Shown here: positions 4,373 through 35,115 of the stretch, one piece after another
Position numbering within the stretch: position 1 is the first letter of the stretch
Layout: every line of letters begins with the position of its first letter
NCBI GenBank assembly: GCA_021800535.1
Contig: JAJYYV010000004.1
Location: 16,007-80,006 of the forward strand
DNA: 64,000 nt
Source of the DNA: a bacterium
Lineage (GTDB): Bacteria; Ratteibacteria; UBA8468; B48-G9; DTJG01
Direction of reading: 5' to 3'
Notes under the pieces: generated by a model
Databases searched by the model: none
Seen by the model: the letters and a program-made list of their open reading frames with translations, nothing else
What the model was told of the DNA's origin: nothing
Translations under genes and position numbers: made by a program

Positions 4373-5299
4373 CTAAAATTTAGCAACTATACCCCACCAC
4401 CATGGCGGAAATGGAATTTGATTTGTTGAACATTGGTATGGGCCAGGTGGTCCTCGCCTATAAAGTGCCCATATTTTACAAGTATCTAAATTAGCTATAG
4501 CTCGACCTTTACAAGCAATAAGTTGAGGTTTCTGCCACCAATGTGAATAGGAAGATTCACATTGACTTATTTGTAAATGATACATTTCATAACATAAATT
4601 TAATCTTATAGATTTCATTCCTGTGGGATCTCTATAATTTATTGGATTATTTCTTTCCACTATGTATAGATTGTTAAGTAAAGAAGAAATAGGTAAAATT
4701 AGAGTTTTTTGATATAGAATAGAGGCAGGTGTGAAAGAAGATAATAAATTTAATTTCATTATTTGAAGCATTGCTATGTAAGTATATATATTCTCAGAAT
4801 TGATTGGGAGTGCTGAAATTGTAGAATTCTCACTCTCTCCCCCACATCCGCATCCTGAATTTCCGTTTGCAGATGGTAAGTTGTTTCCTGTGGCATATTC
4901 TGGCACTTCCCTCAAAAGTGGGTCTACTTCAAGGAAACGGCCAAGAGACGGAGATTGATAGCGGGCACGGAAATAGTAAAGATTACTTTCTCTGTCATAT
5001 TCTCTTCCTTGGTAAGTAATTGTGTTGGTAAAGCCGTTTTCTCTATTAAAAGGTAGTCCCACTCCTATGTTTTCGCCCTCTCTATTCATCATCTCTCCAA
5101 AAGGTAGGTAATTATAACTGGCTATGACTTGCCCCCTTGAATTTGTTAGTTGTCTCACATTTCCTTCTCCATCATAGAGGTAATAAATTGTATGCCATCT
5201 TCCGTGTGTTCTGTATTCCATCTCTATTGGTTGGTATGTTGTGTCTCTGTAGGTGTATATTTTCTTTGCCCTCCCATATTTATTATACACTATAAACAC
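4373..5299 (-). CDS. RHS repeat-associated core + C-terminal tip D (orphan RHS C-terminal module)
   Basis: YLYDGEGNVRQLTNSRGQVIASYNYLPFGE...YQGREYDRESNLYYFRARYQSPSLGRFLEVDPL...NPINYRDPTG, then an 88-aa unrelated tail. The open frame continues upstream to a TAA at ~5405 (IHYNCDCGTKRVYKK...) with no ATG. Confidence 0.8.
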   Translation of the reverse strand: MFIVYNKYGRAKKIYTYRDTTYQPIEMEYRTHGRWHTIYYLYDGEGNVRQLTNSRGQVIASYNYLPFGEMMNREGENIGVGLPFNRENGFTNTITYQGREYDRESNLYYFRARYQSPSLGRFLEVDPLLREVPEYATGNNLPSANGNSGCGCGGESENSTISALPINSENIYTYIAMLQIMKLNLLSSFTPASILYQKTLILPISSLLNNLYIVERNNPINYRDPTGMKSIRLNLCYEMYHLQISQCESSYSHWWQKPQLIACKGRAIANLDTCKIWALYRRGPPGPYQCSTNQIPFPPWWWGIVAKF

Positions 5300-5419
5300 C
5301 TGGTCTATTCCATTTATTGTGTCAAAAAAGTATTGGCTTACTTTACCTCTTACATTTTTCTTATATACTCTTTTGGTCCCACAATCGCAGTTGTAATGAA
5401 TTTAATTTGATAAATATTT

Positions 5420-26216: not shown

Positions 26217-26221
26217 AATTT

Positions 26222-26295
26222 GGGCGGTTAGCTCAGATGGCTAGAGTGTCACGTTGACATCGTGAAGGTCGCAGGTTCAAGTCCTGCACCGCCCA
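26222..26295 (+). tRNA. tRNA-Val (anticodon GAC)
   Basis: Cloverleaf: acceptor GGGCGGT/ACCGCCC, anticodon stem TCACG/CGTGA, loop TTGACAT, T-arm GCAGG-TTCAAGT-CCTGC, discriminator A. 74 nt. Confidence 0.9.
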
Positions 26296-26370
26296 GTATT
26301 TTGGTATCTTTGAAAAAGGACTTGAACCTATAGAATGTATTTTTAAAGAAATTTAAAAAGGAGTCTCACC

Positions 26371-32670: not shown

Positions 32671-33588
32671 ATGCCTACATTAAAAGATCTTTCAAAAAGA
32701 GAAGAAAGATTTGTAAGTGGACACAGGCTATGTCCTGGTTGTGGGGCCGCAATTGTTGTAAAACTTGTATTATCCGCTATTGAAAAGCCTGTTGTTGTTG
32801 GTTGTGCTACTGGTTGTTTAGAAGTGGCTTCCACCATATTTCCATTTTCAAGCTGGACATCTCCATTTATTCATTCTGCATTTGAAAATGTTGCTGCTAC
32901 AATGAGTGGGGTGGAACCTGCTTATCGGTCATTAAAAAAACAAGGAAAGATGGATAAAGATATAGTATTTGTTGCTTTTGGAGGTGATGGAGGAACTTAT
33001 GATATAGGATTACAATCCCTTTCCGGAGCTGCTGAAAGAGGCCATAAAATTATTTATATCTGTTATAACAATCAGGCTTATATGAATACAGGTATTCAGC
33101 GTTCCGGAGCTACACCAAAAGGAGCTTCCACATCAACAAGTCCTGCCGGTAAAGTAATACCGGGAAAAGTTCAATTTCAAAAAGACTTAACAGAAATAAT
33201 GGTTGCTCATGAGGTTCCATATGTTGCCACTTCTATTATTGGTAGATGGAATGACCTTGTGTCAAAAGTTGAGAAAGCATCAAAAACTGATGGATTTTCT
33301 TTTATTAATGTTTTATCTCCATGTAGACTCGGTTGGCCGCATGACCCGGTTTTAACTCTTGAAATTACAAGGGTTGCAGCTGATACATGTGTTTGGCCTG
33401 TCTATGAAGTAGTCAATGGTAAGTATAAAATTACATATAAACCAAAAGAGAAAAAACCTATAACAGAATGGTTAAAGATGCAAGGAAGATTTGCCCATTT
33501 ATTAAAACCGGAAAATGAGTCTTTATTAAAATCTATCCAGGATGAAGTGGATAGAAAATGGGAGATTTTATTAAAAAAGTCTGAATAA
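32671..33588 (+). CDS. 2-oxoacid:ferredoxin oxidoreductase beta subunit (TPP-binding)
   Basis: LCPGCGA... and GGDGGTYDIG TPP motif. Confidence 0.85.
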   Translation: MPTLKDLSKREERFVSGHRLCPGCGAAIVVKLVLSAIEKPVVVGCATGCLEVASTIFPFSSWTSPFIHSAFENVAATMSGVEPAYRSLKKQGKMDKDIVFVAFGGDGGTYDIGLQSLSGAAERGHKIIYICYNNQAYMNTGIQRSGATPKGASTSTSPAGKVIPGKVQFQKDLTEIMVAHEVPYVATSIIGRWNDLVSKVEKASKTDGFSFINVLSPCRLGWPHDPVLTLEITRVAADTCVWPVYEVVNGKYKITYKPKEKKPITEWLKMQGRFAHLLKPENESLLKSIQDEVDRKWEILLKKSE

Positions 33589-33918: not shown

Positions 33919-33980
33919 TCCGGCGTAGCTTCAGCCAAAGGCTGATCCGCCGTGGCGGACAATGAAGCGTGGAGCATCCG
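33919..33980 (+). pseudogene. tRNA-Asn 5'-half-like fragment with a 41-nt two-hairpin insertion replacing the D-loop
   Basis: TCCGGCGTAGCT[TCAGCCAAAGGCTGA TCCGCCGTGGCGGA ...]GGAGCATCCG, compared with intact TCCGGCGTAGCTCAATGGTAGAGCATCCGG. 20-nt identity (AAAATAATTCCGGCGTAGCT) with the start of the real tRNA. Confidence 0.4.
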
Positions 33981-34228
33981 TGAAGTATTATATATATGTA
34001 TTAAAAAGTACAGTTATTCAAAAGAGATATATTGGATATACATCAAAAGATCCTTGGAAACGATTAAAAGAACATAATCAGGGTGGTAATAAATGGACAA
34101 GAAGTGTTCGGCCTTTAGAATTAATTTATTATGAAACTTATGACACTTCTCAAGAAGCAAGAAAACGGGAAAAATTTCTCAAAACAGGTAGGGGCAGAGA
34201 GTTTCTTTCTAAAATAATTCCGGCGTAG
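33962..34228 (+). CDS. small GIY-YIG nuclease (YhbQ/UPF0213-like)
   Basis: KYYIYVLKS...YIGYTS...RLKEHN...RPLELIYYE...EARKREKFLK. Probable true start is GTG at 33980. The last codons are the 5' end of tRNA-Asn. Confidence 0.7.
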   Translation: MKRGASVKYYIYVLKSTVIQKRYIGYTSKDPWKRLKEHNQGGNKWTRSVRPLELIYYETYDTSQEARKREKFLKTGRGREFLSKIIPA

Positions 34229-34530
34229 CTCAATGGTAGAGCATCCGGCTGTACAATTGCAGCTTCCACAAGAAATTGTGGTTGAAAAATCAGGTGAATT
34301 CAGGGGAATCCATTTTTTTAATGGACAATCCTGAGCCAAGTTCTGAGTATATCTCAGAAAAGGTGCAGAGACTATCCCAGAAGGGAGTACTCTCCGTTTA
34401 TAACGGAGCGGAAGCGCCTGACACCTTATTTTCAAAACTTTGAAAAAAGGTGAAGATATAGTCCAAGCCTTAAAGTAATTTAGGGGCACTTGTAACCGGA
34501 GGGTTGTAGGTTCGAATCCTACCGCCGGAG
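34219..34530 (+). tRNA. tRNA-Asn (anticodon GUU) interrupted by a group I intron (exons 34219..34252 and 34493..34530)
   Basis: Acceptor TCCGGCG/CGCCGGA with discriminator G. D-arm GCTC-AATGGTA-GAGC. Anticodon stem TCCGG/CCGGA. Spliced loop CUGUUAA. T-arm GTAGG-TTCGAAT-CCTAC. Confidence 0.8.
34253..34492 (+). ncRNA. group I (IC3-like) self-splicing intron in the tRNA-Asn anticodon
   Basis: 5' exon ends in U. P1 pairs exon GGCUGU with IGS GCAGCU (34259..34264) and closes with U.G. P2 is CCACAA-GAAA-TTGTGG. GAGCCAAGTTCTG and AAGGTGCAGAGACTA closely match Azoarcus tRNA-Ile intron GAGCCAAGCUUCG / GAAGGUGUAGAGACUA. The intron ends in G. Confidence 0.8.
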
Positions 34531-34552
34531 CTATGAAGTTATACTTTGAAAG

Positions 34553-34653
34553 GTAGGATTCGAATAGAGCGAAGTAAGGGATTATGAGCGAGCGTAACAA
34601 TCCCAGCGAGTGGCCGACCCCAAGTGTAGTGAGAACGAGGGGCGCCGAATCCT
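34553..34653 (+). pseudogene. tRNA-Asn 3'-end duplicate (T-arm + acceptor) with a 79-nt insertion in the T-loop
   Basis: GTAGGATTCGAAT[...79 nt...]AATCCTACCGCCGGAG. The insertion is flanked by a CGAAT direct repeat. Confidence 0.5.
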
Positions 34654-34673
34654 ACCGCCGGAGTTTTAATCTC

Positions 34674-34695
34674 TAAATACTCAGTGAATATTTAC
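34674..34695. repeat. 22-bp palindrome TAAATACTCAGTGAATATTTAC, the fused version of the MITE-like terminal repeats
   Basis: Equals rc(right IR of 41658..41673) overlapping rc(left IR of 41494..41509) by 8 nt. Confidence 0.5.
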
Positions 34696-34698
34696 TAT

Positions 34699-35115
34699 TT
34701 ATTGAAGATTTGTTCCTGTACTGGACATACTTAAGGTTGAATGTTTTATACCCTTTAAGGATTTTAATGTATCTGTAAGTTTTATTATTAATTGAGGCAG
34801 ACCTTTAACTGCAACAATTTCTAAGCAATTATCATGGTCTAAATGAATATGTTGTGTTGATATAATTTCTTTTTGAAAATTATGTTGAATATCAAGGACT
34901 TTATTAACAACTTCTCTTTTATGATGATTATAAATAAGAGTTATTGCTCCTACAACCTCTTTATTTTCACTCCATTCTTTTTTTATCAGTTCCTGTCTTA
35001 TCATATCCCTTAATGCTTCGGAACGGTTGTTGTACTTTTTATTTTTTATAAGTTTATCAAATTCCTCAATAAGCTCTTTAGGTAAAGAAACCCCAAATCT
35101 AAATATTTTTGACAT
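34699..35115 (-). CDS. nikR: nickel-responsive regulator NikR (RHH + metal-binding ACT-like domain)
   Basis: N-terminal RHH (RFGVSLPKELIEEFDKLI...YNNRSEALRDMIR). C-terminal His/Cys cluster (HHKRE...H..HLDHDNC). Confidence 0.8.
   Translation of the reverse strand: MSKIFRFGVSLPKELIEEFDKLIKNKKYNNRSEALRDMIRQELIKKEWSENKEVVGAITLIYNHHKREVVNKVLDIQHNFQKEIISTQHIHLDHDNCLEIVAVKGLPQLIIKLTDTLKSLKGIKHSTLSMSSTGTNLQ

Follow-up and report, generated by a model that had tools for sequence, protein, structure and literature searches.

A group I intron between anticodon positions 35 and 36 of a tRNA-Asn(GUU) gene from a Ratteibacteria/Omnitrophota-like bacterium

The four classical types of intron-bearing bacterial tRNA have been extended to 21 (Williams, 2020; bioRxiv 10.1101/2020.01.27.920355), and the tRNA-Asn class that is interrupted between anticodon positions 35 and 36 is called 'Asn.4Ug', a name from Williams (2020) as cited by Nakagawa et al. 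(2026; mSystems, PMC13011429). The latter authors reported group I introns at 35/36 of 15 tRNA-Asn(GUU) and 3 tRNA-Asp genes in Patescibacteria, counted 28 introns at this site across 4,934 complete genomes (9 outside Patescibacteria; 25 of the 28 in subgroup IA), and also tabulated tRNA-Asn 35/36 introns for Bipolaricaulota, Nitrospirota and Cyanobacteriota. One of them, the intron of GCA_016700035.1, self-spliced precisely at 35/36 in vitro, and a control in which omega-G, the last intron nucleotide, was changed to C blocked exon ligation (PMC13011429). Here, we describe a tRNA-Asn gene that is interrupted at the same site in a 64,000-nt stretch of contig JAJYYV010000004.1 (assembly GCA_021800535.1); this whole 64-kb stretch is referred to below as the window. 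We hold, with a probability of about 0.9, that it is a tRNA-Asn(GUU) gene of a Ratteibacteria/Omnitrophota-like host, split at 35/36 by a 240-nt subgroup IA intron of the 'Asn.4Ug' class that lacks an endonuclease gene. A first-pass annotation, made from the letters of the window, had taken both the host tRNA and the insertion site to be new; since both have been published, as 'Asn.4Ug' and in PMC13011429 with in vitro self-splicing, the window intron is a further example of a described class and its arrangement is not new. What is new here, modestly, is the host lineage, a copy free of a homing endonuclease gene, and the patchy presence of the intron among relatives.

The split tRNA-Asn gene and the fold of its intron

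Run with its default settings on the window, ARAGORN missed the tRNA-Asn gene, its sole call being a tRNA-Val at 26221..26296. When introns were allowed, it returned tRNA-Asn(gtt) i(35,240), composed of the two exons listed in Table 1. The joined exons (72 nt) fold into a canonical cloverleaf with the anticodon loop CUGUUAA and the discriminator G, as the first-pass annotation had proposed. Across the junction they read GGCTGT/TAACC (slashes mark exon borders here and below), the same as in nine uninterrupted tRNA-Asn genes, with GGCTGTTAACC across the junction, that occupy the syntenic position in related metagenome-assembled genomes (MAGs). We tried all eight junctions that are possible in the anticodon loop: a U as the last exon nucleotide, U(-1), and a G as omega occurred together only at 35/36. 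The split that had been claimed from the letters is confirmed.

The Rfam family RF00028 (Intron_gpI) matches 34243..34485 on the forward strand over the full model (1-253) with 100.7 bits, double the gathering score of 50 (E 6.7e-25 for the 64-kb window), and is one of two Rfam matches above the gathering score in the window. Beyond the model match, the intron has further sequence features of this class, namely a P1 closed by U.G, a core of P3/P7, P4-P6, P8 and P9, the guanosine-site positions and the omega-G. The P1 helix of 6 bp with its U.G end, the P2 hairpin, the terminal G and the core segments of the P6/P7 region pointed out in the first-pass annotation are all present, at the positions given in Table 1. 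The predicted guanosine site is formed by G34368-(A34369)-G34370 with C34463-C34464, the bulged A adjoining, and by analogy with established group I structure the G34370-C34463 pair would sit at the position of the guanosine-binding pair.

To evaluate this fold, we aligned 13 introns with MAFFT: that of the window, three from relatives (loci L013, L026 and L045) and nine published tRNA-Asn 35/36 introns (PMC13011429, Tables S3 and S5), among them the self-splicing intron of GCA_016700035.1. We left out L001-L008, close relatives belonging to the source population, since they do not differ from the window (100% identity) and add no information on covariation. Helices were read from the window sequence and mapped onto the alignment; P5 was also read off the window sequence, and the counting covered its C-G pairs only. 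Standard pairs were found in 93.6% of 689 cells, compared with 32-45% in controls whose 3' partners had been slid by 1-3 columns. Changes on both sides were seen in 32 of the 54 pairs, and none of 500 shuffles reached the observed covariation score. The window intron itself is paired at every tested position of every tested helix. In P1, whose loop is the 6-nt ACAAUU, the U.G and the three adjacent pairs are invariant in the 13 introns and the fifth pair forms in 12 of them. P4 is paired in 98.7% of cells (4/6 pairs compensatory), a C-G pair of P6 becomes G-C in the Nitrospirota and Bipolaricaulota introns, and all seven pairs of P6a show compensatory changes. The P3/P7 pseudoknot, P7 with its bulged A, the joining segment J8/7 and the omega-G are thus all intact.

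In the reaction expected from this fold, the exon end GGCUGU would pair with the internal guide GCAGCU to form P1 in the precursor, presenting the U34252.G34259 wobble. An exogenous guanosine bound at the P7 G-C pair would attack after U34252, G34492 would then replace it at P7, and the freed 3'-OH of U35 would attack after G34492, yielding the joined 72-nt tRNA with its CUGUUAA loop and the free intron. The CCA end would have to be added after splicing, because it is not encoded.

Table 1. Features of the tRNA-Asn locus (coordinates in the window; pair counts refer to the alignment of 13 introns).
Feature	Position	Strand	Basis or remark
tRNA-Asn 5' exon: acceptor 5' strand, D arm, anticodon stem 5' strand, C32 U33 G34 U35	34219..34252	+	ARAGORN with introns; alignment with intron-less orthologues
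Group I intron, 240 nt, assigned to subgroup IA	34253..34492	+	RF00028 match; covariation on 13 homologues
P1: exon GGCUGU 34247..34252 / internal guide GCAGCU 34259..34264; wobble U34252.G34259 at 5' splice site	34247..34264	+	
P2 hairpin CCACAA-GAAA-UUGUGG	34266..34281	+	6/6 pairs compensatory across homologues
P3 5' strand UCAGGUG, partner 34415..34421	34290..34296	+	7 bp, 100% paired in 13 introns, 3 pairs covary
P4 34300..34305/34329..34334, enclosing P5 34309..34314/34320..34325	34300..34334	+	
P6 (GCC/GGU) and P6a (UUCUGAG/CUCAGAA)	34335..34364	+	
P7 5' strand G-(A bulge)-GACUA, partner 34459..34464	34368..34374	+	invariant in 13/13 introns
P7.1 UCCC-AGAA-GGGA 34375..34386; P7.2 CUCCGUU-UAU-AACGGAG 34392..34408	34375..34408	+	two-hairpin fold
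P3 3' strand CGCCUGA	34415..34421	+	
P8 hairpin ACCUU...AAGGU	34423..34451	+	4 outer pairs counted, 3 compensatory; shorter homologues align poorly
P7 3' strand UAGUCC, preceded by J8/7 GAAGAUA	34459..34464	+	
P9 hairpin CCUUAAA-GUAA-UUUAGGG	34468..34485	+	7/7 pairs compensatory across homologues
omega-G, last intron nucleotide	34492	+	G in 17/17 other introns compared
tRNA-Asn 3' exon: U36, A37, A38, anticodon stem 3' strand, variable loop, T arm, acceptor 3' strand, discriminator G	34493..34530	+	ARAGORN with introns; alignment with intron-less orthologues
tRNA-linked repeat element, independent of the intron	34552..34666	+	inverted repeat, two-hairpin core, direct repeat

With the published 'Asn.4Ug' introns the window intron shares the host tRNA, the site, U(-1), omega-G, the guide GCAGC and the covarying P1-P9 core, as well as the extra element between P7 and P3' and the invariant blocks GGUGAAUU, CAGAGACUA, AGCGCC and AUAGUCC; identity to the nine published introns is 64-72% over aligned columns, with long invariant blocks. 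It differs from the published Patescibacteria members in its host, which is not a patescibacterium, and in its P1 loop, which is only 6 nt long and holds no HNH endonuclease gene. Its P7.1 and P7.2 fold separately, each as its own hairpin, which is also so in the Paceibacteria and Microgenomatia introns, whereas the Saccharimonadia members have a single long hairpin. The tRNA-Asn 35/36 introns of Nitrospirota (GCA_951812745.1) and Bipolaricaulota (GCA_004102645.1), listed as IA1 in Table S5 of PMC13011429, are nearly identical to that of the window in the 3' strand of P1, P2, J2/3 and P3 (gcagcttccacaGgaaaCtgtggttgaaaaatcGggtgaattcaggg; capitals are differences from the window), and the 3' end of the Bipolaricaulota intron (ggggcacttg/TAACCGG) is identical to that of the window. 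In both of these introns P5 and P6 are extended further and the P7.1 region is a single hairpin, and their overall identity to the window intron is about 70%.

Subgroup, junction and integrity of the window copy

The first-pass annotation had read the locus as an IC3 intron of the Azoarcus/cyanobacterial type that had colonised a new host tRNA at a new site. The classical IC3 introns, of Azoarcus tRNA-Ile(CAU), cyanobacterial tRNA-Leu(UAA) and tRNA-fMet, likewise belong to group I and interrupt the anticodon loop of a bacterial tRNA, and the window intron resembles them in P6/J6-7/P7 (GAGCCAAG...AAGGUGCAGAGACUA), in the U(-1)/omega-G pair of splice-site nucleotides and in the GNRA loops on P2 and P9; globally, it is about 70% identical to published IC3 introns over aligned columns. 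They lack P7.1/P7.2, however, and are inserted at 33/34, 34/35 or 36/37. In IC3 introns P7 runs directly into P3', while in the window 38 nt that fold as two hairpins, a hallmark of subgroup IA, stand between them. Two hairpins occupy the same place in L013 and in the Paceibacteria and Microgenomatia introns that have been published, with stems unlike those of the window in sequence, except that the first hairpin of L013 and of the Paceibacteria intron has the same UCCC/GGGA. P7 and P7' are 85 nt apart in the window and 60-88 nt apart in Asn-type IA introns (one of these measurements being an artefact), compared with 33-44 nt in four published IC3 introns. Alignment scores of the window intron reach 201.5 with Asn-type IA introns and 320 with L013, against 116-130 with IC3 introns, and the closest published relatives were labelled IA1 or IA2 by their authors' subgroup models (PMC13011429). 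On its architecture and similarity scores we therefore assign the window intron to subgroup IA. On the same evidence we reject IC3, and colonisation of a new tRNA by an IC3 intron, the host tRNA and site having already been published, is highly improbable. The likeness of GAGCCAAG...AAGGUGCAGAGACUA to the Azoarcus-type core that had been pointed out is real, but this is a core common to bacterial tRNA group I introns and is not diagnostic.

A shift of the junction, which would turn the gene into a tRNA-Thr(UGU) with an intron at 33/34 or a tRNA-Tyr(GUA) with one at 36/37, had to be considered, given that annotation tools often make these two calls for the 35/36 class. ARAGORN accepts a Tyr(GUA) cloverleaf after the junction is moved by one base, and the two-base-shift Thr(UGU) miscall is both documented for the class and met at locus L185 of IMG/VR. 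The nucleotides at -1/omega would then be T/T (Thr) or A/T (Tyr), as opposed to U/G at 35/36, and the U.G wobble that closes P1 would be destroyed, whereas with the 35/36 junction the tRNA body and the junction exactly match the intron-less tRNA-Asn orthologues. Both shifted junctions are rejected on these grounds, and of all the readings weighed here they are the hardest to credit. The other alternative is that the locus is an inactivated tRNA-Asn pseudogene with a dead intron, the working tRNA-Asn being encoded elsewhere in the genome. The tRNA scan covered the 64-kb window, where tRNA-Val is the only other tRNA, and a second inserted or duplicated element lies at the 3' end of the tRNA-Asn locus, both of which would suit a pseudogene. 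Yet the catalytic core helices all pair perfectly, P7, J8/7, U(-1) and omega-G are intact, the exons match those of intron-less orthologues at the same syntenic locus, and the sequence of the tRNA-Asn locus is 100% identical in seven independent metagenome assemblies, which indicates that the window copy is not decaying; we regard a pseudogene as very unlikely. The window copy itself has the exons, the junction, the covarying fold and the homology to experimentally validated introns, and from homology to a validated ribozyme we infer that it splices in vivo. Several points weigh against an active split gene: splicing of this copy is argued from homology, an uninterrupted second tRNA-Asn could possibly lie outside the scanned 64 kb, P1 has just 6 bp, and no convincing P10 pairing was found when looked for by eye. 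Pairing across the 13 introns is also lower in P5 (69%) and P8 (78%), mainly because MAFFT misaligns peripheral hairpins of variable length. On balance, the split tRNA-Asn gene and its intron are very probably functional.

The core is probably also shared with subgroup IA introns in phage genes: the pattern CAGAGACTA-N-AGCGCC-N-GANATAGTCC, built from the core of the window intron, matches at least 120 IMG/VR contigs, and split tRNA genes hold 4 of 124 viral matches (among the matches listed). L185:1926-2227, on a 436-kb contig filed as viral (IMGVR_UViG_3300032782_000001), is a tRNA-Asn(GUU) with a group I intron at 35/36; its intron boundaries are ..GGCTGT/cgataagg...cttcgtg/TAACC.. and ARAGORN miscalls it as Thr(tgt) i33. 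On the reverse strand of a metagenome contig, L102:6956-7455, ARAGORN proposes a candidate tRNA-Gln(ttg) whose intron, of 407 nt, would interrupt the loop at position 39; this may be a further split tRNA or a spurious prediction.

Host lineage, relatives and endonuclease genes

The window encodes ClpB, a hexulose-phosphate synthase/RraA-like fusion, the alpha and beta subunits of a pyruvate:ferredoxin-type oxidoreductase, and NikR. The gene for the beta subunit of this 2-oxoacid:ferredoxin oxidoreductase, here named PorB, lies at 32671..33588, about 630 bp upstream of tRNA-Asn. Scanning GTDB species genomes with PorB, we found that MAGs at 67-78% identity keep a tRNA-Asn gene downstream of porB, and the closest matches (73-78%) come from MAGs labelled Candidatus Ratteibacteria, Candidatus Omnitrophota or TA06. 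The host is an uncultivated Ratteibacteria/Omnitrophota-like bacterium and not a patescibacterium. Among these relatives the intron is present in some and missing from others: L013 carries it, and L012, L014 and L022, with almost the same exons, do not; L026 and L045 carry it, and the intron-less L025 and L029 have exons identical to those of L045 and one base off those of L026. The intron closest to that of the window, 319 nt long and 83% identical, is that of L013 (JAMWCD010000005.1, a MAG labelled Candidatus Omnitrophota).

The P1 loop of the L013 intron holds a 79-nt insert (L013:7361-7440) with the translation LDKRIM*CANCHREVHARLQLPREIVVEK, in which the asterisk is a stop. This insert is the stop-interrupted C-terminal remnant of the HNH endonuclease that is intact in published Patescibacteria tRNA-Asn introns. 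No homing endonuclease gene was found in the window intron, where the P1 loop is short and the sole internal open reading frame (ORF; 55 aa, forward strand) has no Pfam match at E<=1; the ORF running across the intron on the reverse strand (159 aa) has no Pfam match either. The window intron is an endonuclease-free descendant of a once-mobile intron.

Next to the tRNA gene, an 88-aa ORF at 33962..34228 on the forward strand encodes a bare GIY-YIG domain (Pfam E 2e-15) and overlaps the start of the tRNA, ending 10 nt into the acceptor stem of tRNA-Asn. We considered it as the homing endonuclease of the intron and rejected it, as it is a bare domain whose presence in relatives does not track the intron: a GIY-YIG remnant occurs in the intron-less L014, and the intron-bearing L013, L026 and L045 have no GIY-YIG match. 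Because its presence is independent of the intron, we take the ORF to be unrelated to it. A promoter-like site for tRNA-Asn was also noted inside this ORF, at 34094..34121.

A tRNA-linked repeat element in the 3' flank

Downstream of the 3' exon, in 34531..34667, a conserved spacer (..ATCTTCTTTGAAAAG) precedes a repeat element composed of an inverted repeat (IR, 34552..34564), a core (about 34565..34645), a direct repeat (DR, 34646..34663) and a TTTT (34664..34667). The IR, GGTAGGATTCGAA, is complementary to the T loop and the 3' strand of the T stem of tRNA-Asn, and the DR is an exact copy of the tRNA-Asn 3' end (34513..34530). A homologous element (L022:7379-7512) follows the tRNA-Asn of L022, which lacks the intron, and its arms match the T arm of that tRNA. 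A scan of metagenomes with a 26-base core pattern gave 37 contigs (L089-L125), 17 of them from one metagenome. With the window and L022 counted, the loci number 39; in 29 of them a tRNA gene in the same orientation lies 26-37 nt upstream, and these tRNAs represent 14 isotypes. The IR (median 11 nt) is complementary to the T loop and T stem of its own tRNA, the DR, 17-21 nt long and placed at a fixed distance, exactly repeats the cognate tRNA from C56 to the 3' end, and the core forms two hairpins with some compensatory changes. Elements are about 115-130 nt long, and several contigs contain tandem units about 128 nt apart. A covariance model of the element detects it once in the window (34552..34666, 112 bits) and once in L022. 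Downstream of the tRNA-Val gene of the window, the spacer motif of the element recurs as ATCTTTGAAAA (26306..26316) and is followed by AGGACTTGAA (26317..26326), the complement of that tRNA's own T loop and T-stem 3' strand. Neither an element core nor a repeated 3' end was found after tRNA-Val (26296..26330), and this flank looks like a partial unit of the same family.

Rfam searched at a permissive E-value over 34100..34800 gave no match for the element, a scan of viral contigs gave 0 matches, and no mobility gene common to the element-carrying contigs was found. The tyrT repeats of E. coli bear some likeness to it. In the searchable literature we found no description of such an element, only partial tRNA fragments at integration sites, and the fragment left at such sites is the nearest known likeness (PMC9897764). 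The family is apparently undescribed. Tentatively, it may be a new kind of mobile or templated element that targets tRNAs, or else a structured RNA of the 3' trailer able to re-pair with the tRNA body, as opposed to an ordinary remnant of an island at an attachment (att) site; we consider this possible though on the doubtful side.

Two further observations concern element-bearing loci. A second short repeated motif, GCTGGTGCGAAGAATAATGAGCACCG... (hairpin GGTGC/GCACC), occurs near or nested in elements of L102 (about 5250-5330), L104, L100 and L122, and its copy in L102 splits the second core hairpin of the element. In L022 (MWDQ01000107.1), ORFs of 89 and 980 aa lie on the opposite strand downstream of tRNA-Asn and the element (L022:7751-10967); judged by eye, they resemble a small metal-dependent hydrolase and the R subunit of a type I restriction enzyme, and if these readings hold, the tRNA-Asn 3' flank may be an insertion site for islands in this lineage.

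The intron itself is ordinary and its value is mostly practical, and the adjacent repeat family is the more unusual item at the locus and may merit its own study. Default tRNA finders miss the tRNA-Asn gene, so that genomes of the lineage would seem to lack tRNA-Asn and to be less complete than they are, as documented for Patescibacteria. With the window, the host range of tRNA-Asn introns at 35/36 now takes in a Ratteibacteria/Omnitrophota-like lineage. Among sister species whose exons are identical, some have the intron and others do not, which argues for its gain or loss within the lineage, and this patchiness, together with the broken HNH gene of L013, fits the usual cycle in which an intron invades, its endonuclease decays and the intron is lost.

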